The translations under genes and the position numbers were made by a program. The notes below the pieces were generated by a model. The model was not told the origin of the DNA. It made no database searches and was given only the letters and a program-made list of their open reading frames with translations. From Yuukianura sp. NJ FZ-2021 (lineage: Eukaryota): 64,000 nucleotides of DNA. Location: the NCBI GenBank assembly GCA_046563655.1, contig CM102290.1:6262001-6326000 (forward strand), written 5' to 3'. Below, piece after piece: positions 547-38,350 of this stretch (positions are counted from its first letter, which is position 1; each line of letters opens with the position of its first letter).

Positions 547-616
547 TTTTTTTTGTTTCTCCAAATTTGTTCGTTTTTCTCACCTCGAAAAAAGTCCAGA
601 TTCCGGGTTAGGTTTT

Positions 617-2790: not shown

Positions 2791-2816
2791 TTGCTTTCCA
2801 CATTTTTTTTTTTGAA

Positions 2817-3995: not shown

Positions 3996-4012
3996 TTTTT
4001 TTTCTTTTAAGC

Positions 4013-4372: not shown

Positions 4373-4522
4373 GATGTTGACGAGTCAAATGGTTGACTTG
4401 AAATGGAACTCTAGTTTATTCAAAAGAGTCCTTTTTCATAAATGTCCAACTCAATCGTTTCTTGACTGTTGTCCTCAAAACATTCTTTTCTCTTCTTTTT
4501 ATCCTCTCCTTCCCGCATAATA

Positions 4523-5488: not shown

Positions 5489-5506
5489 CTTGAAAGTTGG
5501 CTGGTT

Positions 5507-6040: not shown

Positions 6041-6050
6041 TAGTAGTAGT

Positions 6051-6725
6051 TTAGTAACTTACCTTTTTTACGTAAACAATGCATGTAGAGTCAGGAAAAA
6101 TGTTTGAACGAAACCGAAATTCATCATTTTGCTGTTGACTCAAATCCAAAAAGAGATAACTGTTTGGCTTATTTTTTGTTGCATCATCATAAGCAGCTTC
6201 TAGAACAGGATGACTCTTTCCATTGTTCATTTGTCTTCCCAAAAATTGTATAATTGTAGAGTCTCGAGGATTTCTGAAGAGGGCTAAATATTTACTATTT
6301 AGTGTCAAGTTACGACAATTTTTGTAGAAAAAATTTTGCATAGTAACTATTAGACTCATAGACCTATGGTGACTTCCACGAGTTACCATAGTACAAACTT
6401 CTTTTGACATTGCAATCTCCTCCATAAAATCATCCAAAATTACTAGAGTTGTAATTTTATTTCCTTCTGCAACAACATCTCCAACATCCATCCCTTTTTT
6501 AAATGTAACGGTAGTTCCAACCGTGTCCTTGAAAGCTTCTTGCACTTGCAAAGCAAATGATGGCAAATCCTCGTTATAGCAATAAATTACTTGTTCAATT
6601 TTAGGTTCAATCACTTCATCTTTTCTCAAAATTAATTGATGTATCAATGTGCTTTTTCCAGATTGAGTTGCTCCAGCACAAACCATCACAAAAGGATGAC
6701 TCAACGTAAACTGAAACTCCATCAC
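6051..6725 (-). CDS. FtsK/HerA (A32-like) DNA-packaging ATPase
   Basis: Walker A GATQSGKS, Walker B LVILDD, SHHRSMSLIVTMQN, arginine-finger region RNLTLNSKY. Confidence 0.95.
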   Translation of the reverse strand: MMEFQFTLSHPFVMVCAGATQSGKSTLIHQLILRKDEVIEPKIEQVIYCYNEDLPSFALQVQEAFKDTVGTTVTFKKGMDVGDVVAEGNKITTLVILDDFMEEIAMSKEVCTMVTRGSHHRSMSLIVTMQNFFYKNCRNLTLNSKYLALFRNPRDSTIIQFLGRQMNNGKSHPVLEAAYDDATKNKPNSYLFLDLSQQQNDEFRFRSNIFPDSTCIVYVKKVSY

Positions 6726-6819
6726 TTACAAGGGGGAAAAGAAAATTGGCTTTCACACTGTACAACAATCAAATTTAAACTAAAATCTTTATTTCAATTA
6801 ATTTGGCTTTTTGAATAAA

Positions 6820-9800: not shown

Positions 9801-11008
9801 TTTGATTTAGAGTCATTGGAAAACTTATACAATTCCAATCCACCGAATTTTGAAAGTTGATGTAACTTCGAGGATCAATTACGCGATACCAACGTGTAGT
9901 ACTATTTTTATATAATGGATTCAATTCAGCCAAAATTGCATATTTGAAACATAAAGCGTCCACATTTCTCACGTTCACAACACATCCTTTTCTAGCCAAG
10001 GCTTTTGGTGTGGGAATCCAACTACTTCCGTGTTGCATTTGATACACGGAAAATTTAAAAGATATCCATTTAAAACGGCTAACTCTCCAACCAGATCCCT
10101 TCCGAAGAAATGCAGCAATTGTGTCTCCAATTTTGTTTGACATTAGGCGAATAGCATTTCCAAACATTGATGGTTGAAGACAAATGTGAACAAATGAGCG
10201 AAAAGGAAAGTCTTCTACTTGATGTTGATTTGGATTATCACGCAGTTCACGTGTCATTTCAACTAAAGCTACACTGCTCACTAAATAGGCTCCAATTTCC
10301 GTATGAATTCTTCTCATCAAGTTTCGTAGCGTATTTGAGCAATGTAAAAATACACCAGTCACATCTACAAAAACATCTTGATTAAAGGTTACAGTATATT
10401 CACGAGTTAAACCCCCAAACGCAATCACTTCGTCAAAATTAACTTCATTTTGTCCAGCATTTGCTGACCCGCCACATTGATTTGTTGAAAAATTTTGATT
10501 GTATACTTCTGGATGAACATGAAATAAATGCTCGTCAAGGTGTCCTGGATATTCAAATCGAATTCCACATTGAACACATAGTCTTCTACTATAATTCCTC
10601 AACTCTTCCGCGTCACGAATTGTTTGATTCGTAGTATTTCTTGATTGAAAACTACTACTACTACTTGATCCAGCTTGATTTGGTCCACCATGAACTTGCT
10701 GCACATGATTAATAAAATCTCTTTCTCTTAGTCCTCTCAAATTACAAGTTTGACATCCAAATTCTCGTACTCCGCTACTACTACTTTCCAAACCAAATTC
10801 TTCCAACAGCTCACCTAATGACACAAAACAAAACCAAATTATGTTTTCTTATAATGTATTCTTTTTATTACGTTTTACCTGGAATTTCTACATCATGATG
10901 GTTAGTGTGAACGTGGTTTAAAAAATCTTCAGCACTTAAATTTTGCAAATTACACCTTCCGCAACAATAGAGTACTGCTGCTGCTGCTGCTGCTGAATTA
11001 GAAGACAT
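6820..11008 (-). CDS. Protein-primed family B DNA polymerase (pPolB), 2 exons (11008-10879, 10814-6820)
   Basis: Exo motifs DFEC and HNFRNYD. Pol motifs LDANLLY, K..GN.VFGK, TDTDS. EndoVII-like CxxC...DHCH.TG..RG..CNKCNL insert. A 64-nt GT-AG intron (10878-10815) supplies the ATG and a C2H2 finger (MSSNSAAAAAAVLYCCGRC...HVHTNH). Confidence 0.95.
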
Positions 11009-13799: not shown

Positions 13800-14030
13800 T
13801 TATACGCGTAGTTAACTAATATACATGCTATCTATTGTGTGCATATGTTACATTATTATTACTATGTTAGATTATATTATATTATTATATGTAATACCTA
13901 ATATAATTTGTATGAAATATATTGTTAAAAATATAATAATATCTAATATAACATAGTTAGATTATTAATATAACATAAATTGTTATAACTATATAGGTAT
14001 GCTATATGTTAACATGCTATATAGTTAGCT
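13800..14030. repeat. AT-rich low-complexity tract
   Basis: Dense TA/TTA/ATA repeats. Confidence 0.7.
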
Positions 14031-14347
14031 TTCTCAGGGTCTGGCTAAAGGCCGGACATTTCGGACTCCTCGGATTTCTATCCACTCTCTGTGTGCAAAT
14101 TACTTCTTTTATAAAACACAAAGGTTGAAGTAAACTATATACTAACTAATTGTACCCAATTTTGGTTGGTCGATCTTTTTGTAATTTAATGATTAGGGTA
14201 TCGTTTTTTTTTTTAAATTAATCTGTCAAACTGGTACGTACGCAACAGTCAAGAATGTCAAGAATCTTTGGCTGGCCCAAGGCCAGCCAAGATTCTTGTT
14301 CTCTTTATTTAAAAAGAATCGCATTGAAAAGATTGCAATCCCAATCT

Positions 14348-14943
14348 ATGGAGCTGTTGGGAATGCTCTAATTCCCCGAGTTTTACACCGAAGCTTTAAG
14401 TTTGATGACTTTCTGTAGGATTCTCACCAAAATGTTCAATGACATTTATTGTCCAGGCTTTTCGCTGTGTGATGTCTCACGTCCAGAGCCTACCAGGTTA
14501 CGTTCGATTTTGAGCCATGCAACTAATTTAGCCAATTTTCGAAAGCAACACGTTGAAATATTTGACGTTTCCAATCAATCCAAGGAAAGGCTGGTGGTCC
14601 AACAAAGACAGTTGGAAGAAGAACGAACATCATTGGTTGCGATTTGCGAAACTGGCCAACCTGTACGCTGAAGGAACTGCTGAAGCTTTTCATTGAAGCT
14701 TTAAAGACTGATTTAGTTTTCTTACATCCCAATTGAAAGAGCTAAAAAAGGTTCAAACACACCATCACCACTGAAATTGATCGAATCAAAGGGGAACGAG
14801 CTTCGGTAGCCGAAAAGACGACTACTCTCAAGCTTCAAGCAAGATGTTAATAGAATTAAAAGCAAAATTGTTGACAACCATGAAAGACTCTTCCAGACTT
14901 CAACTTGAAATGTTCCTTCGGATGTGTAAATTCCGCATGTCAA
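14348..14943 (+). pseudogene. Nuf2-like kinetochore protein fragment (frameshifted)
   Basis: PEFYTEALSLMTFCRIL...GFSLCDVSRPEPTRLRSILSHATNLANFR matches the Nuf2 CH-domain end (F...D...P...R....LS...N...FR), followed by broken coiled-coil frames. Confidence 0.55.
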
Positions 14944-15175
14944 CGGAAAAAATTAGCGTGATAAGTTTAGAGTCAGTTTCACTCTCTCAGTTTCTATTGG
15001 CTGTCCGAAGTTTCTCTGTCGGATGCACCAATAGGAATATTTCAATGCGATTCATCGGACAAATACGAGTCTAGAGTATAAGTAGAGACTGTATGCATGA
15101 CTTTGTCCAATGCCAAAGTTCGGACTTCTGCTCCACTCCCGGCTCCGTGGGCGGGTATGCCGATGAAGGGTTGTT

Positions 15176-15255
15176 TGATGAGGATGATGAGCCACTTTCA
15201 AGCCCCACAAATCTCAAGTCGCCCCAGAACCGAATGACCACGAGTGTCAAAACGG
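15176..15255 (+). repeat. Left terminal inverted repeat of Polinton B
   Basis: TGATGAGGATGATGAGCCACTTTC...GAGTGTCAAAACGG is the exact reverse complement of 30546-30625. Confidence 0.95.
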
Positions 15256-16054
15256 AAAATGCACTTAAGAACAAAAGAGACATTATGCCTATCTGTCCAG
15301 TGGCTGTGTCACACATTGTGTCAGTTGTGTTATTTTGCCATCAAGGACATTTTTTCACTTGAGAAAAAAAGGCATAGCAATACACATAGGCCTTTGTGTG
15401 CTCTTTACCTCCTGTTCTTTCAGTCTTTGTGACAGAAAACATTTTGACATCTTAGTTCAGGAAGTTCAGCTTAACCAAAATGGGGAAATCTTTTCGCCAA
15501 ATTCGTCAGGAACGAAAATCGCGGGAACTGCTTGGAATAAAACATGTAAAATATATATCATTTTCTTTAATTTTTTTTGATTTCATGTTATGTTTTGAAT
15601 GTAAGCTAAGAAGTTATTTGTGTAATTTCTTTATTTTATAGTACTGTAAGGACACCACACGGCTACCAAGCCAGAGAGGGGCTGAAGTTCAACTCAATGG
15701 CGGGACCAAGGTACCATGACCTAACCCAAAAAGACTAACAATTTAACATATATAAATCCTACGTCGTGTCATGTCTCACAACCGCTGTTCCAAACCCGTT
15801 AGAATACGTGCGCGGGGTTTTGACTAAAAGCCTGCACGTTCATTTTTCCTTGATCTTCTATTTATGTTTGCATGAAAATGCAAAAAGTAATACGGCGCAT
15901 GCGCGGTAGAATAAAATGTCATGAAGTTAGTGTGTTTATGAGGCTACGTAACGTAGAAGAAATTATTTGCTATTCGTATTCCTCATGTAAACTATTTGCT
16001 TTTCGTGACTTTATTTTCGTTCATTCCTAGAAACTCAATAACATTTACCGCCGG

Positions 16055-16396
16055 ATGGGCACGGGGAAATCAGCACAGGGAGCCCAAAATTGGGTCATCA
16101 CGCAACATGAAATAGTAAGAACTCAGTTTGATGTGTTCATATCACAAAGGTTTAGGTTCATATTACTGACTTTTACTGAATTAGATTTGTTTTTCACTTG
16201 GCAGATAAAACCAGATGATATAATTAATCGTAGACGTCATAGGCGACGACTTGCAAGAGACCGTAAGCGGGACAAAAAAAATGATGAAGAAATGAAACGA
16301 ATTTTGGCAAAAACTGTGAATACAACAAACGGTGAACAATCTTCAACAAAATCTAAACCAAAAAATTCTCAAAAAAATAAAATTGCAGCTTCTTAA
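16055..16396 (+). CDS. Small highly basic protein, probably 2 exons (16055-16114, 16205-16396)
   Basis: The ORF contains an in-frame 90-nt GTAAGA...TTGGCAG intron-like segment. The product has an RRRHRRRLARDRKRDKK basic patch. Confidence 0.5.
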   Translation: MGTGKSAQGAQNWVITQHEIVRTQFDVFISQRFRFILLTFTELDLFFTWQIKPDDIINRRRHRRRLARDRKRDKKNDEEMKRILAKTVNTTNGEQSSTKSKPKNSQKNKIAAS

Positions 16397-16616
16397 CTAC
16401 CAAGAAGTGTTATATTAAAGCTAATATTCAAAAACAAAATTTCAACAACTTTCTACTCCTTGTTTACGAATTTCTAATATTGGAAAATCAAATTAAAGTG
16501 GAAATATTCAACAAAATCAAAGCGTAATTCAAAATTCAAAACGAAAAATCAAGTTAAGGTGAAACACATTGTATAATTTTATTGAAAAATTATTTGAATC
16601 AAATTTTAATTTGTGT

Positions 16617-18224
16617 TCATTGTGCCTCCATGTAGCACTCATGCGCTTTGTCGATGGCCTTCTTGAGGTTCGGAAGATACTGCATGTTGATGTTTATGCC
16701 TCTTCTCCCATCTACGACACCGTTCACCATGTGCCGTATCATCACATAATGTGCCCCGCGAAATTTGTGCCACTTGACATGGACATCGAGTCCAATGTGC
16801 ACGGACCCGCTCCGAATTTGCTTTCCCCTGGTATTATGATCGGCTGGAGCCAAGTCAAGAACCAAGTCCTAATTGAGAAATTAAAACTATCATTAGCCCA
16901 TTCGCAACTAAGTGCAAATTATAAAAGTAATATGTATCTTACGTCTTCATCATCCTCGTCTCCGTCCTCTTCGTCCTCTAATCCAGACCGCTTTCGTCCT
17001 TTCTTTTTAGGTGGTTCATAGGAAGACGATGCGTCCGAGTCAGTATAAATGTCTGTCTTCCGTTTCTGCAATGCTCTTGGAGCGCTCTATATCATATACA
17101 AAATCAAAGATTTACACTCAAGAAAGCTAACATAAAATCCCAGAAGTATTTAGGTTAGATTGTAGCTAAATTTACCTTTCTACCATGAGCTTTTTTCGGA
17201 GGGAGCATGCTTTTTACACCGACTGGAAGGTCAGGTAACGGCATCACATTTTGCCGCTTGAGCTTTGGTTTCTGAACCCCGTAGGTAATCTGGATATCAA
17301 AAGTAAACAAATTTTACGCCAGAAATCATTGCACAACCATTTATTACAAGCTTGTTTTGATTCACCTTTTCCTTCCCTTTTTTGTTCACATCAGTGAGAC
17401 TTTGCGACTTCCTTACAACGCTTGACGGGGTTTTCGGTCGCTGACCTGGTTTGGCTCTGACAGAAGGTCCTGCTTTTGACTTCAGACCAATTCCGGAACC
17501 TGCCTTCGTTTCATCAGCAGTTCGCTGCAAGAAACGAGCTTGGCGATAAACTTAAATATTATAAAGAGCATTTAGTATACTTTGAACAAAAATTACCTTT
17601 AGAAATTCGGGCTCTTTTCCAATTTGGCGAATTGCCAGTTCCTTAGAATTGCGTTTTTTAAGCGCAGAAACTAACTCATCTTCGGATGCTTCCGGATCTT
17701 CCTCGCCTTCTTCCTCGTCCTCGTTTTCGTCATCTACTTCGTCTTCCTCTGACTCTTCTTCGCCTTCTCCTTCGTCCTCATCCACAACAAACTCAGGATC
17801 CGAATCCTAATAATGGGAAAGTAATGATAATAACAATTGACAGATCTGATGAACCAATAGTTACATTTTACATTTAAAACTCATTTCAAAAAACTTTTTT
17901 TTAGACAACTTACCTCAACTCCTGCAGCGGCTGCCGACATTTTTTCCTTGACGGCTTCTTTAAATTGCTGGCTCCTACTTATGGGGTTTTTCTTGGAAAC
18001 CGATGCAATGGCCGCATCAGCCTTCTCCCCACTTTGAAACGACGTTTCATCCAAATCCACAATTTCCGGTTCGCCTTCTTCCTCTTTGTCAAATGTCGAA
18101 ACTAAAAACGCATTTTATCAAATATAATTAGAAATCATTTCAAATAATAGAATTAGAAATCATCAACAAAAAACAAGCTAAGTTAAAAATCCTTTTGATT
18201 ACCTTTCCGTAGCTTGTAACTCAT
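16617..18224 (-). CDS. Acidic/basic disordered protein with a C-terminal PC4 (ssDNA-binding) domain, 7 exons, ~362 aa
   Basis: Exons 18224-18203, 18101-17914, 17806-17597, 17524-17366, 17289-17176, 17086-16943 and 16868-16617 join in frame across GT-AG introns. The last exon, VHIGLDVHVKWHKFRGAHYVMIRH...GRRGININMQYLPNLKKAI, is PC4-like. Confidence 0.75.
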
Positions 18225-18384
18225 CTTGTAACTGCAACTCTGACACAAGGCTTTTGGTTGTTTGGTAAGTGTTGTTTGGTAGTTGTTGACTGTATCACTG
18301 ATAGTACTCGACTGAATCAAAATTTAACGGTTTTGAAACAATCTGAATCGTGTGAAAATCCAAAGTTAGGGCTTCGCTTCATGG

Positions 18385-18645
18385 GAAAATGCAATTTTTG
18401 AAAATTCTGAAGTTGCAATTTTGCTAATTTCTCTTAAGTTGGAATTCTGAAGTTGCAATTTTGCTGATTTCTCTAAAACTAAAATTTTGAAATTGCAATT
18501 TTGCATTTTATCTCTTAAGCTTTACACTTTGCACGTATTAGAATTTAATTCTACTTATCGTCACTAAAACCTCCCATCATTAAACACAAAAAGGAGTTAC
18601 ACTCTTTAAGGGACAAAAAGGACTTACACCCTTTAAGGGACGTAA
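18385..18645. promoter_or_regulatory. Repeat-containing divergent promoter region between the PC4 gene and pPolB
   Basis: About 4 degenerate copies of (TTCTGAAG)TTGCAATTTT(G) at ~40-bp spacing, plus AAAAGGA.TTACAC.CTTTAAGGGAC x2. Confidence 0.5.
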
Positions 18646-18875
18646 AGGCTCTTCATAACCTGTTTGTAAGCATTCTATTAATTCATTCCCAGTTAAAATT
18701 TTTTCGAAGGAAATATTATTAGTCCTTATTGATTGTTTTATTTTTTAAAATGGCAATGGTCGGGGCAATTTAAATACTGTCTCCCTGCCGACGCCATCTG
18801 ACGGTGGAAATAGGAATGAAAAAGGTTCCGAGCATTTCCGTTTGGAATTTAATTTGTCTTTTTTGTTTTTAGAAA

Positions 18876-21800
18876 ATGGAAGATATCCAACTTTCCACGC
18901 TGAGGTGCGAACTCTGTCTGAAAGTTTCAACTAACAAGCAACATTTTTTGGTGCATTTGTCAAAATGCCGGCGATCCAATGCGAGGCGCCTTAGCAGACC
19001 TCGAAAGCCTATTAACAAGTGCTTAGTTTGCTCAAAATCTTTTCACCGACACTTGGACCTGGAAAGGCATAGAGCTGCTAAGCATTCCAAGCTAATTCAT
19101 AAAAGTGCTGCAAGGATTTTAACCAGGAGAATTCAAAGTGGTGGCTCAATGACTCAAAGACGAAAGTTGGATATTCACCCATTCCAAAAAATTCAAGCTT
19201 TCAAAGGATACATCAGAACATATCGTCACAATTGCAAAAAACCAATTGAAAACTTGAATATGTACTTTTATAAGTTCAGCGATCAGATGCATAACATTAT
19301 TAATGAGTGCTTGAGGACCTTCAATTGTGTCAAGAGCCAAATTTCTGTGAAAGTTCAATTTCAACGCTTTCTCTGCAAATCAAAAGACGGCAATGATGTG
19401 TATGAATATCAGCAGAAAATGGTGAACTCGAACATGATTGTCATACTCAACAATCACCACAGCCTTAGCCGGTTTATGCAAATGTGTCTCACAAAGATTG
19501 AACATTCCATAAGCATCTTCGAAACATACGGTTCCGGGTGGCAATTTGGAAAAGTTTATGGATCTGACATACGAATTGCAAAGTTTAATGCTTTGACGGG
19601 AGGATCCTGGCGAAATTTGCCAAAGTACTTGCAACGTAAAAGAGCAACCATCAACATCAAAACCAAAGGAAATTTTTGCTTCAAATGGGCTTTTCTGGCG
19701 TCTGTACACAAAATCTCCAACAAAAAAAAAGCTTCAAGGCCGAATTCCTATCTGGAGCTAGAAAGTCTTTATGACTTCACTACGGTATCTTTCCCAGTTT
19801 CACTCCGGGCAATTCGCCAATTTGAACTAACTAACGGCGTTGCTGTGAATGTGTTTGGGCATGATAGTCTCCAAGGTTTGTATCCTTTGCAAATATCTGA
19901 GTTTAATTATACAGGTGCCCGCACTGCAAATTTGCTACTTTTGACCAACAAAAAAACAAATGCATCGCATTTTGTTGCAATTCGTGACATAGACAGACTC
20001 TTAGGGAAACAGAACTGCAGAAAACGTGCTTTGTGCTTTAATTGCCTTCAGAGAATAAAAATGTGTCCAAGCACATGCAGAAACTCAGCTTGTGATCGTC
20101 GTTGTTTGCTGAATTTACATCGCGTAGGCTGTGAGAAATTTGCGGCTAAAAAAGTTAAAATGCCAGACGACCAAGAAGAAATTTCATTTGAAAATTTTGC
20201 CAACCAAATGAAAGCTGGCTACGTTATGTATGCTGACTTGGAGTCGATCCTTCGACCTTTGCCGCCGCAGCATGACTACTCAACCACTGTGAAAGAAAAG
20301 CGGCACGTACCTTCTGGGTTTTCATATGCCTTAGTGAACTCGAATCAAGAACTAGTGACGTTTCGTGTCTATAGAGGAAAAGATGCGATTGAGGTATTTC
20401 TAGAAGAGTGCTTGGAAATTGGCAAAACTATTATGGAAATCTACGACATCAACGTACCTCTCAGAATGACGCAGGCAGACGAAATGGCCTACAGCAACGC
20501 AACGCACTGCCACATATGTGGTCACAGATTTGACAAGTTTGCTGAGAGATGTCGCGATCATGATCATTTAACCGGTACATTAGAAATTTTTTAAATAATT
20601 GTTTAATATTTTAACTAATTTCATGCTAAAGCGTTATGGAATGTTTTCAGGCTGTTTTCGAGGAGCGAGCCACCAAAGCTGCAATTTAAACTACAAACAA
20701 AAGAAAATCCTTCCTGTGGTTGTAAGAATACCATTAACAAATATTTTTTAACAATTCACTCCGATTTGTTCTAATCATTCTGATTGTTTCTAGATGCACA
20801 ACCTACGAGGGTACGACCATCATTTACTCATTAAAGGACTGAACAAGATCAGTCCAAAAAAGGTGACGGTGATTCCAACGAATACAGAAAAGTACATGTC
20901 TGTGACGATTGAATCTCTTCGGTTCATCGACAGTCTTCAGTTTATGAACTGCAGCCTATTTGAGCTTGTCCAGAATTTGAAGGACAAAGGAACTGATGGT
21001 TTCAAAATATTGAATGAAGTCTTTGGACCTAAGCTCGCTCCGTTGCTGACCCGGAAAGGGGTTTATCCATATGATTACATCGATTCATGGGATGTTTTTG
21101 AAGAGACTTCGTTGCCCCCGTTTGAATCATTCTTCAACACACTTACGAACACGAATATTTCAGCAGAAGACTATGACTTTGCGAACCATGTTTTTAAAGA
21201 GTTTGGTTTAAAGACGATCGGGGAGTACCATGACTTGTATGTCTTATCGGATGCACTGCTACTCGCTTGCGTCTTCGAAGAGTTTCGTAATATGGCTATG
21301 GATGATTTCAAACTAGATCCAGTACATTATTTCTCGCTGCCTGGGCTGGCATGGGATGCGGCGTTGAAGATGACTGGGATTCGGCTAGAGTTGCTAACCG
21401 ACCCTTCAATGTACACCTTCTTAGAACTAGGAATGAGAGGTATTATCAAGAACAAATAGGCGTAATACCAGTATTCATTGCATTTGTATTATAGGTGGAA
21501 TTTCCCAAATCTCTCATCGCTACGCAAAAGCAAATAATAAGTACTTGAAGTCCTTCCGCGGACATCCAGATGACAATGATCAGTCATACATTGTGCTTTG
21601 GGACATGCTAAATTTATACGGGTGGGCGATGGTTGGCATGCTACCTGTCAGCGACTTCATGTTTTTGGACCCAGGTACAACGTGCCCTATATCCATTAAT
21701 TACATGGTAATTATATCAGATATTTGTTTTCCAGAACTCATCCAGCAATTTGACGTTTTGAGTATTGACCCAGATGACGAGATTGGATACATCTTGGAGG

Positions 21801-23007
21801 TGGATGTTACATACCCTGGTAGGAAAATTTTATAACAAATATTGAATCGTTTCAAGTGATTGTAATTCACGGTCTACTTACAGCTGAACTACACGATCAA
21901 CATCAGTGTTACCCTTTGGCGGTTGAACGGGCACACGTCAGCAATGAAATGCTTAGCCCTTTTCAAAAAAAGATGCTTTCTCAACTTCCAATTAAATATA
22001 TGGATCATCAGCAGAAGCTAGTTTCGCATTTTTTACCTCACACAAACTACATATGTCTCGCCAGCAATTTGCAGTTTTATGTCCAACGAGGACTTCAGGT
22101 GCAGAAAATACACAAGATACTTGCCTTCAAGCAGATGGCCTGGTTGAAGCCTTATGTCGAGTTCAATAGTACCAAACGGAGTTGTGCGAAGAATGAGTTC
22201 GAGCGGATGTTCTACAAGCTCTGTGTGAATGCTGTTTTCGGCAAAGGAATGGAGTCCGTAAGGAAGAGGATGAATGTAAGAGTGGTCAACGACAAACGAA
22301 CAGCGCTAAGGCTGATTGCAAGAAGCCAGTTTCTGTCACATGACATATTGGGGAAGAACTTAGCTTGCTTCAACATGCAAAAGCCTTGTGTTACACTCAA
22401 CAAGGCAATTTACACCGGATTTACAGTTCTGGAATTAAGCAAGTTACATATGTACAAGTTTCACTACAACTACGTGAAGAAAAAGTGGGGTGAACGTGCA
22501 AAGCTTCTCATGACCGATACCGATAGCCTGGCGTACCACATTACAACGACTGATGTGTATGAAGATATTTCTATGGACTTGCAGCATTTCGACACAAGCG
22601 TGCTTTCACCCGCTGACCCATTGTACAGTACTCACAACAAAGGAGTTATTGGGAAAATGAAAGATGAAGCTAAAGGAACAATTATTTCAAAATTTGCTGG
22701 AGTCGGGCCGAAGTCTTATTGCTTTCTTGGAGATGATACGCAAACGCCGACTTACAAAAAAATGGCAATGAAAGGCGTACCCCAAAGAATTCAGAAAAGT
22801 TCAATTTCGTTTCATATGATGAAGAATGTTTTATTTAAGCAAAAAGTTTTTGCATGCACTAGCAAGTCAATGCGTTCATATAAACATAAGGTGTATAACA
22901 TAAAGAGTACGAGAGCTGCACTGCATGGATTTGACTCAAAGAGGTACATTTTGAAAGATGGAATTTCTACATTACCCTTTGGTCATTACAAAATTAATCA
23001 GGAGTAA
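18876..23007 (+). CDS. Protein-primed family B DNA polymerase (pPolB), 6 exons
   Basis: Introns 20575-20650, 20722-20793, 21440-21494, 21675-21734 and 21819-21883 are all GT-AG. Splicing restores DHDHLTG|CFRG, ILPVV|MHNLRGYD, GMRG|GISQ, DP|ELI and YP|AELHDQH, collinear with Polinton A pPolB. N-terminal C2H2 fingers, WDMLNLYG, K..VNAVFGK, TDTDS. Confidence 0.93.
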
Positions 23008-23031
23008 ATAAATCAAAATACTGCAACACAT

Positions 23032-23728
23032 TTATATGTAGACTTTCAAAATTAATCGGATCTCCGTTCGGCAAATCGGGCAATGAGATTGAGTAGTACA
23101 ACAATCTTGACAGGTTGATAGATGGCAGCACGGTGCAAACATGTAGGTCGTGGTTTGAGATAGGCAAATTTTGCATGTGAACATGCTTTTGAGGTTGTTG
23201 AACTCGGTTTCTAAAATTGATTACAAACAAACTGTATACACCAACAGAACAAACGAGAAGTAACTTTTGTATATGAATTAAAGTTTCAATGCACACCTGG
23301 ATCAGAATCAAGCTTTCCGGTTTGAGCTATCCCTGCATCTGCCTGGTTATTCTGAAATTGCATTATTCGAGATTTACAACAACTTTAGAAACTTATAAGT
23401 CCATCCTTACATTTTCTTGAACCTGGCGTCCATTTATATAATGATATGCACAATCAGGGTTATATATTTGGTGTTCCAGTGATGGATTATCCAATTGATT
23501 CCACGTAGATAAGCATAGCCCGCAATAAAAGCAGATAGAACAATCCTTATGTTCTGTGAAAAAGAAGCCTGCCCTTGCCATGTTCACAAATGGTGGTAAT
23601 TTGTCACGCATTGCAGTTGGATAGCTAGAAATTCGTTTTTCGAGCTGAACGTATTCTTTAAAGGTAGGTCCTCCATCATTTGCTGCAATCACAGGCATTG
23701 TGAGAACCTCAATTGTTTCGGAAAGCAT
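23032..23728 (-). CDS. iap: Inhibitor of apoptosis (single BIR + C-terminal RING), 3 exons (23728-23411, 23351-23297, 23210-23032), ~183 aa
   Basis: BIR: RISSY...MARAGFF...CFYC-x16-H-x6-C. Exon 3, missed by the ORF track, reads CKICLSQTTTYMFAPCCHLSTCQDCCTTQSHCPICRTEIRLILKVYI*, an IAP-type RING. Splice phases are compatible. Confidence 0.9.
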
Positions 23729-23838
23729 GATGCACTACACACAAAGATCTTTGAAAGTTAGTTGGTATCAAAAGAACGGTCACTTAATGTGTAGACTTCT
23801 GATGCAAAACTGGTACTGGCTGAATGGTTTCACTAGCA

Positions 23839-24699
23839 TTAGAAAAACTTCCAGGCGGATCCCTTAGCAATTGGTGTTTGGTAATCCTCCCCTGATGGAT
23901 TGTCCCCTTGATTGAGATCATCATCGTTACTTTCGTCATTTTGATCATCTTCCATGTCCTCTTCTTCTTGTTCCTCCTCCTGTTCTTCTTCCTCGCCTTC
24001 TTCTAGTGGTTGGCCAACCATTGGAGTATTTTGAGCAAGTAGCGCTACCGTTGTCAAGTTTAGTTTGTTGCGAATATGAATTCCGAGTAATTCTTTTGGT
24101 ATATGTACTTTCTTCAAAATGTAGATGAAAGTACGTATCCCCTTTGGGGGAGTGACTTTCGCCGGCGGCTTGAGAACGTATGACAACAAATCAATAATAT
24201 TGGCGCCATTCCTAGGTACACCCTTAAAGAATACTTGACCCGACTCATCCCAGGAAATGTCGTTAAACGCAGATGTTGAAAGAATCTGCATTATTTTTAA
24301 ACCTGTCAACTGGTACTTTGTCGGTAGGAATTTGGCCAAATGAGTGTTGTAAAGTGCTTGGTCTACGGTTGTCTCTGCATCATGCTTCATGGTTCCTGTT
24401 GTCGTAGAAGTTGAATGTTTAGATGTCATAGGTAGAGGATCCGTTTTAGAAACTTCTACACGAAGAGGAGTTTCCGTCAAGGCTGAAAAGCTTGCGTGCA
24501 ATCCCTTCACCATACTATTGAATAAGGCTAACTTGATGTCATCCGAAATGGAATTCCAATGCAGAATATTTGTAGCTGCTGCTTGTTTCCTGTTAAACAG
24601 GTGAACTGAAGAAGATTTGTGTAACAACTGAGGAGCCCTTTGGATGGCAATAAGTTTCTCGTACTCTAGATGCGGTATTAACTTCATTTTTTTGGACAT
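23839..24699 (-). CDS. Conserved Polinton protein of unknown function
   Basis: Homolog of 2817-3995; acidic C-terminal tract; start overlaps the upstream stop (TAATG). Confidence 0.8.
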   Translation of the reverse strand: MSKKMKLIPHLEYEKLIAIQRAPQLLHKSSSVHLFNRKQAAATNILHWNSISDDIKLALFNSMVKGLHASFSALTETPLRVEVSKTDPLPMTSKHSTSTTTGTMKHDAETTVDQALYNTHLAKFLPTKYQLTGLKIMQILSTSAFNDISWDESGQVFFKGVPRNGANIIDLLSYVLKPPAKVTPPKGIRTFIYILKKVHIPKELLGIHIRNKLNLTTVALLAQNTPMVGQPLEEGEEEEQEEEQEEEDMEDDQNDESNDDDLNQGDNPSGEDYQTPIAKGSAWKFF

Positions 24700-25046
24700 T
24701 ATAAACCGACAAGATGAGTTAACGCATTCGCTGCGAGTCCGCCAAGTAGCGACAACGCTGGGGTTACCAACAACGGAAGAAATCCTCCCTTTTGTATAAG
24801 GAATTGTTTCTTTTTTTTGAGTGATAACTTTTTTGCGAGATTCCTGATACCAAACTTATGGCGTCGTAGTTTGTGTTTGTGGTTGTTGCTCAAAGGTACA
24901 TTACCTATCAAAGTATTCAGTGCAATTTCTGACAATGCGTCAATGTTGTCCTTTGAGGCTTTCTTTATTAGTTTCTTTCGACGGAGAGCTTTGCACCTCG
25001 TCACCTCTTCCAAGAACGTCTTGTTTCTAACTAATCGCTTTGTCAT
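24699..25046 (-). CDS. Small basic conserved Polinton protein (QKGG-FLPLL tail)
   Basis: Homolog of 4013-4372. Confidence 0.85.
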   Translation of the reverse strand: MTKRLVRNKTFLEEVTRCKALRRKKLIKKASKDNIDALSEIALNTLIGNVPLSNNHKHKLRRHKFGIRNLAKKLSLKKKKQFLIQKGGFLPLLVTPALSLLGGLAANALTHLVGL

Positions 25047-25060
25047 TCTAAGACAATCAG

Positions 25061-25772
25061 CTAGCTCGGTAAGTAAACGATGTGGTCTTCTTTCGGCAGG
25101 ATTCCCGACTGTATTCGTAGATTGTCGTGACAGCTAGGGTGCAAATTCAGAAATAAGTAGGAATACGGTTGTCGGGTTGCTTCCTCGTATGCGTTTAGAA
25201 TAGCACTTGGCTTCCTTGGGTTGAGCTGCCTACTGAGGTACATAACTTGAGAAGGGAATGAGGGTGTTTTGCAGATTGTCATGTAATGTGTATTGAGACG
25301 AATATCCCTAGCATATTTCCCTTGTGGCAGCAGATTTTGAGACAGAAAGATGACGGATATTGACCTGGAATTCGAAAACGTTTTGTAAATTCTATTCAAT
25401 GTAAGAGAAGCTATGTTTCACATACCTATGATGAACACCGCAAGTGAAAAGTTCTTGAATTGATTTATCTTTTAATGAATCCGCCATTTGGTCATCGATG
25501 ATTAACAGCGTATTTCTTGCATAAACTTCGTCCAACTTTATTCCTTCCAAACACCTAACTCTAGAATCCATTGACCTCATGACGTCATAGCCGCTTTGAT
25601 ATACCTTATAGAATACAATTACATCGTCGATCCTAGGTTGCACCATCATATCCAGGTTTTGAATAATCTTGCAAACGAAGGTTGTTTTTCCGGACATTGT
25701 ACCACCGGCAACGATGAATGTGAATGGATGTCTGAGTTGAATTTGATGGAAATCGTACGTATTGCTCTCCAT
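25061..25772 (-). CDS. DNA-packaging ATPase, 2 exons (25772-25426, 25364-25061)
   Basis: Walker A GGTMSGKT, Walker B LIIDD. A 61-nt GTATGT...TTCCAG intron restores GVHHR|SISVIFLSQN. Confidence 0.92.
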
Positions 25773-26518
25773 TAAGCTGATATCTTCCTAAAATGCAGAG
25801 TTAAAGTCACCTGTCCTTTGTCAATCGGCAACTCCTCGCCAAACTCGTCACACAGTACAATTGAGATGATGTCAAACTCGCTCCTTGAAATCGGAAGGTA
25901 AAACGGTTGCGGAAAAGTTTGAGTGACTGCTTGTCCTTCGTTTCCAATTATGTTTACCATACGAAGTAGAGGTACAAGAGAGGATCCAACGATTTGAGAC
26001 TCTATTATGTCGCAGTATAGAAACATGTGATATCGCCCACCGAGTATATCCGGTGGAGAATCGGCTATGAAGTAGGTATTTTGCTGATTTGCATTAAATT
26101 CAAGCGTACCATTATATCCCAAAATGTACGAGAGTTTCTCACTTATTTCGATACTAAATCCGGCTTCTACTTCCAGGCTCACGCGGCACTTTGTTTCGTA
26201 GTACTTCAAGTTGGAAGGGACGCTGTGCTTTATAAAAGATAAGTTGACCATGTGAACTAAATGCTCTACGGTACTGTAATGAAGTAAAGGAAGCTCTATA
26301 TTCCCGGCAGTCTTCGCCCCATTATACTCAATGAGATTATCTTTCTCAGCTCCGGTTAGAGTTTTTATGGAGCACACATAAGTCAACTCAGTAAGCCCGA
26401 CCTCGTATAAAGAAGGGTCAAGTTCTATTTTGGATGGAAGTTTAATCCTGTAGTTACTCGTTCGGTTGTCAGAAAAATAACGTGAGCCGTTCGACGGTAA
26501 TGTAATATAGAAGCCCAT
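25772..26518 (-). CDS. Minor capsid protein (PX/penton-like)
   Basis: FYITLPSN..YFSDN..SNYRIKLP...YEVGLTEL; MFLYCDII..QIVG....PLLR; TLHFR. Confidence 0.92.
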   Translation of the reverse strand: MGFYITLPSNGSRYFSDNRTSNYRIKLPSKIELDPSLYEVGLTELTYVCSIKTLTGAEKDNLIEYNGAKTAGNIELPLLHYSTVEHLVHMVNLSFIKHSVPSNLKYYETKCRVSLEVEAGFSIEISEKLSYILGYNGTLEFNANQQNTYFIADSPPDILGGRYHMFLYCDIIESQIVGSSLVPLLRMVNIIGNEGQAVTQTFPQPFYLPISRSEFDIISIVLCDEFGEELPIDKGQVTLTLHFRKISA

Positions 26519-26519
26519 T

Positions 26520-27449
26520 TTATTCGTTTCGACTTATCTTGCTGAGCTCTTGACTGTAATAGATCCCAGAAATTTGTTCACCGGAAAGATCTTTGACACG
26601 GTACGTCACTGGAATAGAATTGATGACTTCACAGACTTCGAAAATTTCGTTTGTAAAAGCAGGCCAATAACCCTTGCCAAATATGTGTTTCGTTTTATCA
26701 AGACGTACGCGGTCATATAGTTTGAGAATGGCTTTTGGTTTAGATTTGGAATACAAGTCCTTATAAGATTCCAACCAGACGTCCATTTCATTGTATTTAT
26801 TAACGTCGCATGGCGCCACTTTCGTCCGAGAATGTATCTTGCTGTTATAGGACTTCAATAGAAAGGGCAAGGCCTCAATGTATCTCTTTTGACCGGTTTC
26901 AGTAAGATGTCTGGAAATGGCTGTGCATATTGTTCGGTTAAACCTTTCAATAACACATGAGCCGAAGTCAGAGAAGTTGTGGTACATTAATATGCCGAGA
27001 GACTTCGCCCACTTCCGGAATGCAGCTGACCAAAATTCTCCACCTTGATCACATTCTAGCGTAACGGGTCGTCCCTTCCCGGAAGAAATGATTTTCTTGA
27101 ACGTTTGAATAACTTCACTAGTTTTTTTAGATTTCATGGGCACAGCAAATGCATACTTTGACAAGACATCGATCGCCGTTAAAAGACAAGAGTAGCCATC
27201 GTTCTCTTCAGTGTATTTCGGCAAGAACACAATATCAGCCTGCCAAAGATAGTTTAATGCTGGCGATATTACTCGTCTTCTACGAAATCTACACCTTCGT
27301 CCTTTATGACGTGTGTATGAATCTTGACTTTGTAAAAAATTCAATGCTGCAGACTGAGAAATGCCATGCAACTTGCTCAAATGTTTGTTTCCACACAAAT
27401 AACTCGATCTTCCAATCCGCTTGTATGACTTTGCGATGTCAGATTTCAT
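26520..27449 (-). CDS. Retroviral-like DDE integrase
   Basis: WQADIVF...DVLSKYAF...ECDQGGEF...IERFNRT. First ATG at 27449. Confidence 0.95.
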   Translation of the reverse strand: MKSDIAKSYKRIGRSSYLCGNKHLSKLHGISQSAALNFLQSQDSYTRHKGRRCRFRRRRVISPALNYLWQADIVFLPKYTEENDGYSCLLTAIDVLSKYAFAVPMKSKKTSEVIQTFKKIISSGKGRPVTLECDQGGEFWSAAFRKWAKSLGILMYHNFSDFGSCVIERFNRTICTAISRHLTETGQKRYIEALPFLLKSYNSKIHSRTKVAPCDVNKYNEMDVWLESYKDLYSKSKPKAILKLYDRVRLDKTKHIFGKGYWPAFTNEIFEVCEVINSIPVTYRVKDLSGEQISGIYYSQELSKISRNE

Positions 27450-27527
27450 ATTCTTTAATAAGATAATAAATTTGTAGAGTATCAAATTGGATTACATAAA
27501 ATTTTATATGGTTGTAGGAAATTAAAC

Positions 27528-28076
27528 TTACATATTGAGGAGAACTTCTAAAATTTCACAACACTGAACTATTTTAAGCAATTCTTGAGGTTCACTCGTC
27601 GAAGTTATTCTACTATCGTGCTGCAAATTAATTGCTACAAAGTCTCTTACAATGGCATCGTTTATATCTAGATCAAAATCGTTAAACTTGCTCAGAATTT
27701 TTTCGAATGATTCTCCCCTGATTCTGTGAAACAAATAGTACAGTGCAAACTGGCCGCAAGCGTCACTCTTCTCTGGTTGTACTCTAAGACTGCTCATTCT
27801 AATGACATCAGCCTTTGAGTAAAGAAAATTTACAAAGCTGGGAGTGTAAAACTCAATTGGCATTGCACAGCTGTCAAAAAATTCAACCTCTCTACCTCCG
27901 CTGTTTTTGAACATACTGATCCAATGCATTCCTGGTTCCTTTGAAGATTGGGAATTAACAACGATGGCGAACTGATCCGATGTAACAGCCTTCAATTTGT
28001 CAGAGGGTAGAACTGCGGTTTGATATGATTTGTTGAGGCTCCTATTCAAAATCTCCAAGATCTCGGTAGTGTTCAT
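27528..28076 (-). CDS. Adenain-like cysteine maturation protease
   Basis: Catalytic H (GMHW), D (FFDS), Q and C (QPEKSDACGQFALYYL). Confidence 0.93.
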   Translation of the reverse strand: MNTTEILEILNRSLNKSYQTAVLPSDKLKAVTSDQFAIVVNSQSSKEPGMHWISMFKNSGGREVEFFDSCAMPIEFYTPSFVNFLYSKADVIRMSSLRVQPEKSDACGQFALYYLFHRIRGESFEKILSKFNDFDLDINDAIVRDFVAINLQHDSRITSTSEPQELLKIVQCCEILEVLLNM

Positions 28077-29374
28077 TGTGCAACGACTGCTTGCCGGTAC
28101 TTGTCAATCTCCAAGACGCCTTGTTGCTCAGACAGTATGACACAATGGACTGATTTTTCTAAAGCAGTACCAAACTGAACTTCAATCTTCACACTCCCAG
28201 ACTTCTCCAAATGCAGCAACGCATCGTTCCCAGTGGGCTGAAGAATGTCAAATGTAAACAGTGCATTGTTCTCTTTATAGTCATCACGTGCAAAAGATAG
28301 TCCCACGTCATGCCCCGCTATTCCTGTGCTTGTGAATAGGAGATAGTATGGCAAAAGGCATTCGTCGTTTGCAAAATCCAGAGATAACGGTCTTATTGGA
28401 AGAGACACATTGTTGACTGAAATAGAAATGGTCTTGATGTTGTAATTATGGAAACGAAAAGGATTTGAATTGACGTCTCCATTGAATGCCAAGCTGTCCA
28501 CAAACCCGATTATAAGCCGGCTTGGTACAGTATTTGCAAAAAGATTTTCCTCTAGAGCAGATGAATTTCCTTGAGCAATCGTAAAATACTTTACATCAGT
28601 TGCCTTAAACGGGTATTGAGCGATTTCGCCTTTTTCTAGAAGTCTTTGATGAGCCAAGATGATGCTAGGAAATGGCAGTTGTTTTCGGATGTAATAAGTT
28701 GCTGACAAGAACTTTATTACACCGTCGTCACCTTTTGTTTTTGAGAAAAGAGCAAATGCATCAGAAGCTCTGGTTAAACAAATGCGAACGTTGACATCAT
28801 TTAATATATAGCGATGTTGATTTGCCAGGTTAAATCTCAACTTGTCGATTAGCTCAACAGGTTTCGATTCACTAATGAAGGCTTTTCGCTTTTCCCATCC
28901 CGAATTTGTTGAATCAGCAATTCCACCCAGTGTGTCTTCGTAATACAAAGCGCAACCCCCTTGTGAGCTCTTGTAATCTTTTCCGTAGCACAGCAATGTT
29001 TCAATGTATGCACGATAAGCGTAGCCGTTATTGCTTGTGGAAACAAGTTTTTCGTTGAAATAAATATCGAGCTGTGAGAAGAGTGCGTGCATGAAGAGGT
29101 TCACAGTACCAACGGTTGACTCTTTACCCAGGTTAGTTCCAGCCTTCTGGGTTACTTTAAGTTTCACCCGTAGGAAGCTGTCATTCAAATCAAGATAATG
29201 GTTGCTGTTTCCCGGAATTTTGAATTCGATTTTGTTTGACGAATCCTGAACATTGACAACTGGCTGATACTCTTCGTACATGCTGTAGTCACAGGTAGTA
29301 TCTGTTGCTGGAATTGAAAATAAGTCAACTTCTCCCCGAATAGCTGGTTTAGACCGAGAATGTAGTAGCGACAT
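28073..29374 (-). CDS. Major capsid protein (PY/hexon-like)
   Basis: 433 aa; DLFSIP.T...YQP...IEFKIPG...YLDL, NLFMHALFSQ, YAYRAYIETLL, PSRLIIGFV...AFNG...NPF.F motifs. Confidence 0.95.
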   Translation of the reverse strand: MSLLHSRSKPAIRGEVDLFSIPATDTTCDYSMYEEYQPVVNVQDSSNKIEFKIPGNSNHYLDLNDSFLRVKLKVTQKAGTNLGKESTVGTVNLFMHALFSQLDIYFNEKLVSTSNNGYAYRAYIETLLCYGKDYKSSQGGCALYYEDTLGGIADSTNSGWEKRKAFISESKPVELIDKLRFNLANQHRYILNDVNVRICLTRASDAFALFSKTKGDDGVIKFLSATYYIRKQLPFPSIILAHQRLLEKGEIAQYPFKATDVKYFTIAQGNSSALEENLFANTVPSRLIIGFVDSLAFNGDVNSNPFRFHNYNIKTISISVNNVSLPIRPLSLDFANDECLLPYYLLFTSTGIAGHDVGLSFARDDYKENNALFTFDILQPTGNDALLHLEKSGSVKIEVQFGTALEKSVHCVILSEQQGVLEIDKYRQAVVAQ

Positions 29375-29862
29375 TATGCAAATATATCCAATTTGGTTCT
29401 CTTTGCAGTCTTTGTTGACTTCGTTGAAGCCTTTCTCTTTTTCGATGCCTTCGGTTTCTTAGGTTTTCTTGACGCTTTGTTTCCTACTTTGGATGGCTTC
29501 CGTTTCGTGTATGTACGCTTCCGTTTAACTCCCACACCTTTCCCTGTTTGAGATCCAACTGCTGATTTCAAAAGATCGGCACCAACGTTTTTCAAAAATC
29601 CGAGGCTGTTTTCCTTCAGAGCGTGCTTTACTGACTGACGTCCTTTCGCAATCCCACTCACAGTTTTTACTGCTGCTTCCTTTGCATGGGGCATAATCCA
29701 CTTCATGATTATAGGCAAAGCGTATTTTGCAATTCCTCCTAGGATGGAACCAATGCCTCCTCCTCTCTGTCGTACCCCATGAAACACAGGAATTCCATGG
29801 CCAATTTGGTCCCTCAAAGTATTGTAGTAGTGTTCGTGATTAAACACGTACCTCTGCCGCAT
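29374..29862 (-). CDS. Basic core-like protein
   Basis: QIGHG, QRGGGIGSILG and QTGKG motifs, amphipathic middle, K/R-rich tail ending DIFA; homolog of 617-1312. Confidence 0.88.
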   Translation of the reverse strand: MRQRYVFNHEHYYNTLRDQIGHGIPVFHGVRQRGGGIGSILGGIAKYALPIIMKWIMPHAKEAAVKTVSGIAKGRQSVKHALKENSLGFLKNVGADLLKSAVGSQTGKGVGVKRKRTYTKRKPSKVGNKASRKPKKPKASKKRKASTKSTKTAKRTKLDIFA

Positions 29863-30097
29863 TGTAGATAGATGTTTTCAGTTTGACTTAAGAATGATCA
29901 CTGAGGGCTGAATTTCGAACTATGATTAATATGACTATTAGTCTACAATAGAATAACCGGAAAGGAATTCAAGCCCAGCTTTTATGATATAAACGGTTTC
30001 TAATGTTAAAAACGTTTATGTTTCAAACATTGCTTTACATGAAGATTTTGATTATTTCAGAGTATATATTGAATTCACTTTGAATTAAACAATGGTA

Positions 30098-30422
30098 AGT
30101 GGGTTAGCGCAATCGATAAGGTGGTGGCATCAAATCGAGGGAGCCTGGGGTCGATTCCCATTAGCAGTAATAAAAAAAATTAAAAAAAAAAGTTAGGTTG
30201 CTACTCTATTTAAACTCTTCGTATAGTCAAGCATTCTTCTCTCACGGATGCCTCGACTTGTTGCTCTCTGTTCTTTGAGTCACTGTTCCATTTCCACCAT
30301 ACTGGACAAGGTGGAATGAGACAATGACTTAAAGAGCAGAGAGCAACAAGTTGAGGCATCCGTGAGAGAAGAATGCTTGATTATGCGAAGAGTTTAAATA
30401 GAGTAGCAACCTAACTTTTTTT
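30098..30422 (+). ncRNA. Candidate Pol III transcript: tRNA-like leader plus ~113-bp hairpin
   Basis: A-box-like TAGCGCAATCG (30105-30115) and B-box/T-arm-like TGGG-GTCGATT-CCCA (30146-30160). Inverted arms 30185-30298 and 30310-30422, ending in T7 with no earlier T4 run. Confidence 0.6.
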
Positions 30423-30454
30423 AAAATTTAAATGGAATATGTACTTAATTTTTT

Positions 30455-30562
30455 CACGAGTGACAAAACGGCAAGTGCCGTTTTGACACTCTTTGTCACT
30501 TGGTCACTTTGTCAAAAATGACAATGAGTGTCAGAACGGCACTTGCCGTTTTGACACTCGTG
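30455..30562. repeat. Subterminal nested palindrome (two flip/flop hairpins)
   Basis: GAGTGACAAAACGGCA-AG-TGCCGTTTTGACACTC and GAGTGTCAGAACGGCA-CT-TGCCGTTTTGACACTC in inverted arrangement, overlapping the inner TIR edge. Confidence 0.85.
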
Positions 30563-30625
30563 GTCATTCGGTTCTGGGGCGACTTGAGATTTGTGGGGCT
30601 TGAAAGTGGCTCATCATCCTCATCA
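30546..30625 (-). repeat. Right terminal inverted repeat of Polinton B
   Basis: Exact reverse complement of 15176-15255, followed by the TSD GTTGTT. Confidence 0.95.
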
Positions 30626-30653
30626 GTTGTTTTCGTTATGCGGTTAGTTCGAA

Positions 30654-30686
30654 CGCCGCCGCAAGGCGGCGCCACGGATTGCCTAG
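30654..30686 (+). mobile_element. Helitron-type 3' terminus
   Basis: GC hairpin CGCCGCC-GCAA-GGCGGCG, 11-nt spacer, CTAG, then T. Confidence 0.6.
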
Positions 30687-31384
30687 TTTCAAATATTGAA
30701 AAGCTATTCAGTCCCGGACCCCATTCCCATTTCAGTTCCTATTTTTAGACAAAACAAGCGACTGTGGATCTTCACTTGAATTGTTTTGGTGGAAGTGGTT
30801 AAGGTGGAGTGTGGATGACAAATTCCTACCACACCTCATCTCCCGCTTTCTATACTAAAAACTATAGAAAAACCTGTTGTAGGGGGTTTGTTTGTTGGAG
30901 AAAGAAGCCACTTCATTGTTACTTAACGACCCCTCTCCAACAGGTGGAATCCACAATGGAACACAATCCACTTCCACTCCATCCATAAAAATTGAGGGAA
31001 GAAGTGGTTAAACTCTCTGGTGGGAATTTGATCCTCTCACAATTTAATTCTTTTGGAGAGACTTACTTGGATGAGATGGGAGAGGACTGGTGAGTCCATG
31101 AGTGTCTTTAGGAAAATTGTATCCGTACTTCCGTCCAGAGAGGAGAGATGACTGCGCACTGCTTGGAAAGCAACTGAAAACAAAAGAAAAGAGGGAATGA
31201 GTGACTTGGTTTAGAGTGAGATGGTGGGTCTGGTGGCTCACCATTGTCAATGGCATAGAGGTCAGAGGCGCTTTCCAGTGAGGCTCGGTGGGAAGGTGAA
31301 AGGTCAAGGAGTGATCTGCGCTCAGAACTAACGAAAACCATTACTCCACACAAACTAAAAAGTGTCAGTGGACCATTTCTCTGT

Positions 31385-32160
31385 TTAAGAACGGTAATCG
31401 ATAGAGAAAGGAGGTGCCTTCATGAGGTTGTTGTTGGGAGTTGGTTGTTCCTGTGTTGTTCCGTTCCTCACTCGAGGTTTCGGAATGCGAGGGGGCGTGG
31501 CGTGGTTTTCCAGCAGACGATTCACGTTTCCCAAAACGTTTTTGTAGTAGGTGACTGTGGGCTCCACTTCCGCCTCTTCATCAGACGAACCAAATTCACT
31601 CACACTCGGCCCAATTCCAGGACTGCCTTCTGCCTCACTAAAAAAAACAAACAGGATACCAACGGTATCACTTAACAAGGAACAAATTACATAAAAATTG
31701 TGTAACCGCTTCACTTGTTAATGTTAAGTGATAAGTCTTTTGATTTTTGAACTTTGCATATACTGGAATGAAAGAAGAATGCTGATGTTACCTTTGAGTG
31801 CTATGTTGTTGTTTTCCAACCAGTCAGGAAGATCCAGATGCGGGCCAGAGTTGTGGACAGAGTAAACACTGTTTTCTCCACTGATTGGCAGTTGAAGGTC
31901 CTTGAGAATCTTGGACAAGTCAGCACTCTGGTTCGGAGAAATGTCGTCGTATTTACGATTTCTGTCGCAAGATCGTTGCTCCTGCGACCAGCTCTTCTTC
32001 TCTGGAACAACGTCCGTTTGCACTCCAATGTCAGATGACTACTTGTGTTGGGATTTGATCAATGTGTCCAGTTGCTCTACGTGTTACTTAATGGAGTCAA
32101 CATTAATCGACTACTTTACCAGGCAACACTCACTTGCCAACTTCTGACAGTAGTTTTGCC
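31385..32160 (-). pseudogene. Degenerate exon-like coding fragments of unknown family
   Basis: Short exon-like frames (QTDVVPEKK...NIALK|GT; EAEGSPG...) with in-frame stops upstream; no recognisable domain. Confidence 0.25.
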
Positions 32161-38250: not shown

Positions 38251-38350
38251 NNNNNNNNNNNNNNNNNNNNNNNNNNNNNNNNNNNNNNNNNNNNNNNNNN
38301 NNNNNNNNNNNNNNNNNNNNNNNNNNNNNNNNNNNNNNNNNNNNNNNNNN
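38251..38350. other. Assembly gap (100 N)
   Basis: Run of n. Confidence 1.

Follow-up and report, generated by a model that had tools for sequence, protein, structure and literature searches.

A candidate three-exon BIR-RING inhibitor of apoptosis gene in an apparently intact Polinton

Introduction

The baculovirus proteins Op-IAP and Cp-IAP, like the inhibitors of apoptosis (IAPs) of entomopoxviruses and iridoviruses, are virus-borne BIR and RING proteins that block host cell death. For the viral IAPs examined to date, the death pathway is the main target, and some viral IAPs lack anti-apoptotic activity. Closer to the locus described here are the adintoviruses, in which Starrett et al. (2021, Virus Evol, PMC8502044, section 3.2) observed Bcl2 and IAP homologues; an IAP label also appears in the text of Supplementary Fig. 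S2 of that paper, and IAP is one of the leafhopper adintovirus ORFs named in a figure legend of a 2026 preprint (bioRxiv 10.64898/2026.07.28.741253). IAP homologues in adintoviruses and Polintons have been in print since 2020/2021, and the gene that we describe does not open a new category. A full-text literature search combining Polinton, Maverick or adintovirus with IAP, apoptosis or BIR returned no further reports and, preprint supplements and figures aside, no account of splicing in a Polinton IAP or of how conserved such a gene is.

Here, we analysed a window of 64 kb (the whole stretch of DNA under study, whose positions are used throughout), in which a first-pass annotation had proposed a spliced BIR and RING gene hidden inside a Polinton.

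Results

The gene lies in an apparently intact Polinton

The element that carries the IAP gene is 15,450 bp long, ends in well-matched TIRs and is flanked by a perfect 6-bp target-site duplication, GTTGTT, at 15170-15175 and 30626-30631. Its main features, apart from the IAP gene itself, are as follows.

15176-15262, no strand: left TIR, 87 nt, 98% complementary to the right TIR
18876-23007, plus strand: pPolB, matched by tblastn (E 9e-125, four blocks) to the intronless pPolB of a second element in the window
23839-24699, minus strand: upstream ORF, 286 aa, strongly acidic C-terminal tail, no family match
25061-25772, minus strand: packaging ATPase, A32/FtsK-like, one intron; Pox_A32 at 22.7 bits, just under the 22.8 cut-off
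25772-26518, minus strand: candidate minor capsid (penton) protein, assigned by position, with a homologue in the second element
26520-27449, minus strand: retrovirus-type rve integrase (rve, 9.1e-17)
27528-28076, minus strand: candidate adenain-like maturation protease (Peptidase_C5, E 0.011, below cut-off and a lead only)
28073-29374, minus strand: candidate double jelly-roll MCP (DJR-like_dom, E 0.017, below cut-off)
30539-30625, no strand: right TIR, 87 nt, 98% complementary to the left TIR

A Polinton/Maverick is defined by TIRs, a target-site duplication, pPolB and an rve integrase, all of which are present here. The translation of this pPolB contains a DTDS motif, and its intronless homologue in the second element matched the Pfam family DNA_pol_B_2 (2.6e-8). 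A virion module is weakly suggested for the element: the candidate MCP also received a protein-atlas feature score of 0.98 to F54H12.2-like/DJR-like clusters, which serves as a lead only, and the candidate penton had no family match in profile searches. Placing a BIR-RING gene inside a Polinton was correct: the gene lies between intact ends of the element and converges on pPolB.

Several other features of the region were noted. The left part of the element (15263-18875) contains no long ORF; instead, several pieces of ORF on its minus strand (17552-17806, 17881-18114 and 16919-17086 among them) contain acidic or serine-rich runs and look like exons of another spliced accessory gene, located upstream of pPolB. 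Next to the right TIR, on its inner side, there are two short hairpin-like inverted repeats at 30185-30562, one with arms of 108 nt at 93% and a 22-nt loop and the other with arms of 47 nt at 91%. To the right of the element, a long tandem satellite array of ~155-nt repeats occupies 38350-50000.

Three predicted exons join a BIR and a RING in one frame

As had been stated for the ORF track, the only piece of the IAP gene in the ORF listing is a 111-aa BIR ORF (23393-23728, minus strand), and the frame of the RING has no ORF of 60 aa or more in that listing. Two further exons, supplying a linker and a complete RING ending in ...KVYI, had also been predicted, and they were recovered here with GT..AG introns and fitting phases.

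23411-23728, minus strand: exon 1, 318 nt, ATG at 23728, 106 codons to ...QEN, phase 0
23352-23410, minus strand: intron 1, 59 nt, GTAAGG...TTTCAG, with in-frame stops
23297-23351, minus strand: exon 2, a 55-nt linker of 18 codons plus 1 nt
23211-23296, minus strand: intron 2, 86 nt, GTGTGC...TTTTAG, phase 1
23032-23210, minus strand: exon 3, encoding the C3HC4 IAP-type RING after a helix-like lead-in and before the tail ...KVYI
23008-23031, no strand: 24-nt spacer between the stops of pPolB and the IAP gene, tail to tail

Exon 1 encodes an N-terminal stretch of 35 aa followed by the BIR domain. The final base of exon 2 and the start of exon 3 form one shared codon, and the gene ends with a TAA at 23034-23032. 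When the exons are joined by their coordinates, the modelled coding sequence of 552 nt translates into 183 aa with a single terminal stop. Splicing exon 1 straight to exon 3 loses the frame of the RING, and exon 2 is therefore needed. The three-exon structure is a frame-consistent GT..AG model in which splicing itself is predicted, and BIR and RING reside on one protein only if splicing follows this model. The stop of pPolB ends at 23007. The orientation given in the first-pass annotation, convergent on pPolB, was right; the stops of the two genes are 24 nt apart and not 25 bp as reported there.

Both domains have the hallmarks of IAP proteins

Scored separately against Pfam, exon 1 matched BIR with 58.4 bits (E 1.1e-15; cut-off 22.9) and exon 3 matched zf-C3HC4_3 with 40.3 bits (E 2.7e-10; cut-off 27). 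Both scores lie far over the curated cut-offs. The zinc site of the BIR, CX2CX16HX6C, is intact (C66, C69, H86 and C93), as is the spacing of the zinc ligands in the RING, C-x2-C-x11-C-x-H-x3-C-x2-C-x6-C-x2-C. The start methionine and all four BIR zinc ligands are invariant in the six members of the family described below. The search found neither another such BIR nor another such RING elsewhere in the 64-kb window.

Each exon was also compared with the PDB. For the RING exon, the best 10 of 15 sequence matches were IAP RINGs, ahead of MYLIP and others, with E-values of 3.9e-11 for cIAP2, 5.9e-11 for cIAP1, 1.7e-9 for ML-IAP (4auq) and 2e-9 for XIAP, and the alignments reached into the pre-RING helix and the C-terminal tail. 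For the BIR exon, all 22 matches at E <= 1e-5 were BIR proteins, the best single-domain match being the BIR of ML-IAP (1e-9). Structure prediction contributed little: an AlphaFold model of the BIR exon, built from a six-sequence alignment, had a mean pLDDT of 49.5 and was too poor for use, and the prediction of a RING homodimer scored 0.27 against a mark of 0.32.

Residues L73, W76, D80 and E85, which we take to be the peptide-groove positions that bind the N-terminus of the IAP-binding motif (IBM) in XIAP and ML-IAP, are invariant in all six family members. The position of XIAP BIR3 W323 is occupied by Y, H or F across the family (Y89 in the window copy), and the conserved Trp after Pro82 is replaced by Ser in the window copy. 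Binding of an IBM is plausible, though uncertain.

The same groove bears on an alternative function, in which the spliced BIR-RING protein would act as an E3 or adaptor in innate-immune signalling of the NF-kB/IMD type, like cIAP1/2 and DIAP2, or would mark a host restriction factor or a protein of the element for degradation. Variation at the W323-equivalent position (Y/H/F) fits such a role, and the matches of the BIR exon include the BIR1 adaptor domains of cIAP1 and cIAP2 (3m0a and 3m1d), with E-values similar to that of DIAP1. Nevertheless, the best single-domain match is an IBM-binding BIR, the acidic anchor residues D80 and E85 never vary in the family, and the viral IAPs characterized to date mainly target the death pathway; we thus consider a signalling or degradation role unlikely.

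A diverged sister element preserves exons, phases and gene position

A scan of metagenome contigs identified a 2,727-bp contig (L003) with a diverged version of the gene, in line with the expectation that it should be present in sister elements. The BIR exons of the two copies are identical at 49 of 107 aligned positions (~46%). Intron 1 of L003 (73 nt, GTAAGA..TTACAG) interrupts the same codon boundary in the same phase as in the window, its exon 2 is again 55 nt long, with identity at no more than 4 of 18 residues, and intron 2 (71 nt, GTGAGT..TTTTAG) also keeps its phase. The product of exon 3 is 58% identical to that of the window; none of the eight metal ligands has changed, and the ...K-V-(Y/F)-(I/L) tail is conserved as well. 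The joined product has 185 aa and one stop. In L003, pPolB likewise converges on the IAP gene, with a spacer of 25 nt. Beside its IAP gene, L003 also has a homologue of the 286-aa upstream ORF, with 58% identity across 109 aa, and a distant homologue of this ORF occurs in the second element of the window. Global nucleotide identity between the window and L003 was 0.56-0.61 for exons and introns alike, which is uninformative at such divergence.

The mirrored exon structure and gene position lend indirect support to the predicted splicing, and they weigh against the possibility that the exons are never joined, with intron retention or early termination yielding a BIR-only protein of ~111 aa and the RING exon left unused or belonging to another transcript. 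A short BIR product is conceivable, as a stop closes the BIR ORF five codons into intron 1 in the window and three codons into it in L003, and BIR-only proteins such as survivin exist; a survivin-like BIR gene also turned up in our searches (L004, see below). Against it, L003 conserves the RING frame at 58% identity together with the eight metal ligands and the IAP-type tail, and the length and phase of exon 2 have been kept with hardly any identity in its residues. Moreover, L003 has no ATG upstream of the RING, and a stand-alone RING ORF is therefore not conserved. We regard unjoined exons as very unlikely.

The window gene belongs to a small family of single-BIR ORFs

An exhaustive HMMER search retrieved 4,360 BIR proteins at E <= 1e-3. 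Among the 150 matches listed, only one (P0018, 115 aa, 48% identical) resembles the BIR exon ORF. A word-index search starting from P0018 added four ORFs of 109-120 aa, one of which is that of L003 itself; the same type of search found no match for the BIR exon among proteins and none for the RING exon among longer proteins. Five of the six family ORFs, the exception being P0158, end in ..VR plus 0-6 residues, as expected if a GTAAG-type donor in this same position is read through. The exon structure was seen at the DNA level in two of the six members, the window and L003.

The six ORFs form a well-delimited group. With a family HMM they scored 171-207 bits, compared with 81 bits for the next protein, and they were the only single-BIR proteins among 155 scanned, the rest carrying 2-7 BIRs. 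In a FastTree tree of 458 BIR domains (of 501 domain hits, those not spanning the core being dropped; 70 columns), they formed a clade of exactly six tips with a support of 0.92, while deeper nodes were weak.

Searches of IMG/VR gave two weak matches to the BIR alignment (L001 and L002, 39% over 34 residues) and none to the pPolB C-terminus, used either as a single sequence or as an alignment. One further candidate, L004, was rejected as a Polinton, being a 115-kb contig of cellular origin. Its single-BIR gene, at 10010-10423, encodes a survivin-like protein of 137 aa and is surrounded by housekeeping genes (for a deaminase, a glycerate kinase and an ABC transporter).

Further copies exist, and a second Polinton in the window lacks the gene

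Contigs of public runs were aligned to positions 14000-32000 of the window. A contig from X3, which comes from a different study and bears a different organism label, spans 22637-28538 with 78 differences and one gap. A second X3 contig crosses the left junction (14271-16090, two differences), and the same insertion is therefore present there. The source organism has a second, diverged copy, represented by an X4 contig (22844-25606, 33 differences, nine gaps). For X1, 328 pieces aligned, in identity classes ranging from at least 99% down to below 90%, and one contig stops exactly at 15176, the edge of the left TIR; this spread of identities, together with the contig end, suggests a multi-copy family. 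The gene is thus not confined to the window copy, since the X3 and X4 contigs and L003 all carry it.

A second, different Polinton runs from the start of the window to ~10.8 kb (1-10824) and is cut by the left edge of the window. Its features are listed below.

19-477: MCP fragment
617-1018: ORF162-like gene
1309-2448: penton-like gene
2817-4028: ORF286-like gene
4097-4372: ORF115-like gene
4670-5476, plus strand: integrase
6051-6722: ATPase
6820-10824, minus strand: pPolB, intronless

Its gene order differs from that of the IAP-bearing element, and the search of the 64-kb window found no BIR in it. The IAP gene is therefore a lineage-specific accessory, dispensable for Polintons as such. The missing gene in this other family would also suit a decaying passenger, that is, a captured host IAP fragment free of selection in a domesticated or dead element. 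Such a passenger is hard to reconcile with a frame that is open in both the window and L003 at ~46% identity, with catalytic and zinc residues intact, or with an element whose TIRs are 98% complementary, whose target-site duplication is undamaged and whose core genes are open, and we give this explanation almost no weight.

Introns are shared by core genes of the element

The presence of introns had been read earlier as a sign of DNA-level capture from a host or of later intron gain. The argument for capture did not hold up, because core genes of the same element are interrupted as well. pPolB is broken at no fewer than four places, whose junctions read as short GT..AG introns, and it is in four separate blocks that it matches its intronless homologue. 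In the ATPase, GTATGT...TTCCAG falls exactly at a point where the homologue is continuous (HHR|S...). The window and L003 have at least one pPolB intron site in common, after ...YPG. With pPolB and the ATPase also split, introns are uninformative on the origin of the IAP gene; they point instead to a lineage expressed through the nuclear splicing machinery of the host.

Both pPolBs of the window contain an Endonuclease VII/HNH-like insert, which matched Endonuclease_7 of Pfam in the intronless copy (6820-10824, minus strand; 7.5e-8) and, at 20470-20726 on the plus strand, is split by an intron in the IAP-bearing element. An HNH insert has been described as a peculiarity of pPolB2 in terrestrial nematodes and oomycetes (10.1101/2023.08.22.554363).

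Discussion

We propose that the locus is a genuine three-exon accessory IAP gene of an apparently intact, recently inserted, adintovirus-like Polinton/Maverick, and that its product probably suppresses cell death; judging from sequence, we put the probability of this reading at roughly 70%. Host RNA polymerase II would transcribe the gene, and its introns would be removed as in the intron-bearing pPolB and ATPase. The BIR may then bind pro-death proteins or processed caspases by the IAP-binding motifs exposed at their N-termini, and the RING would recruit an E2 and ubiquitinate the bound partner, so that cell death or related innate signalling might be held off while the element replicates. 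Actual splicing, E3 activity, targets and an anti-apoptotic effect are all predicted here from domain content and gene structure. The anti-apoptotic role suggested in the first-pass annotation is plausible and agrees with the report of IAPs in adintoviruses (Starrett et al. 2021), and the function itself is likewise a prediction.

On a broader scale, it is possible, if doubtful, that the intron-bearing Polintons include an old and distinct lineage in which a minimal IAP, with a single BIR and a RING, has become a permanent component of the genome, always tail to tail with pPolB and with the same two introns, past the point of <50% identity. If this tentative idea were true, such Polintons would regularly enter a replicative phase that provokes host cell death, would behave as true nuclear viruses and not as passive transposons, and could carry IAP genes between animal hosts and large DNA viruses.

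The gene is a well-documented case of a predicted cell-death regulator in a Polinton, defined by precise exon coordinates, a structure that is conserved and a small set of relatives, and it supports the view of such elements as viruses that manage the death response of the host. At 183 aa, the compact protein is open to direct testing. The locus also illustrates that annotation of Polintons by ORFs alone, in intron-rich lineages, misses accessory genes and splits core genes such as pPolB and the ATPase.

Comparison with known systems

Among cellular proteins, ML-IAP/livin (BIRC7) shares with the predicted product the combination of a single BIR and a C-terminal RING. It is, however, a vertebrate protein whose aligned stretches are ~30-35% identical, and it is ~300 aa long, whereas the window product would have 183 aa with an 18-residue linker. 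The RINGs of cIAP1, cIAP2 and XIAP have the same C3HC4 spacing, preceding helix and hydrophobic/aromatic C-terminal tail; unlike these proteins, the window product has neither a UBA nor a CARD and contains only one BIR.

Some iridovirus IAPs consist of one BIR and a RING and are similarly small. The IAP genes of insect DNA viruses in general differ from the window gene in being intronless and in residing in large cytoplasmic or nuclear viruses.

The adintovirus IAPs are alike in being IAP-type accessory genes of an animal element with pPolB, an rve integrase and a capsid module. In the published section, figure text and legend cited above they appear as a name on a map, without an analysis of domains, splicing or conservation. 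Compared by description, the window gene is distinguished from them by its two predicted introns and single BIR, and by a fixed tail-to-tail place beside pPolB in at least two diverged elements.
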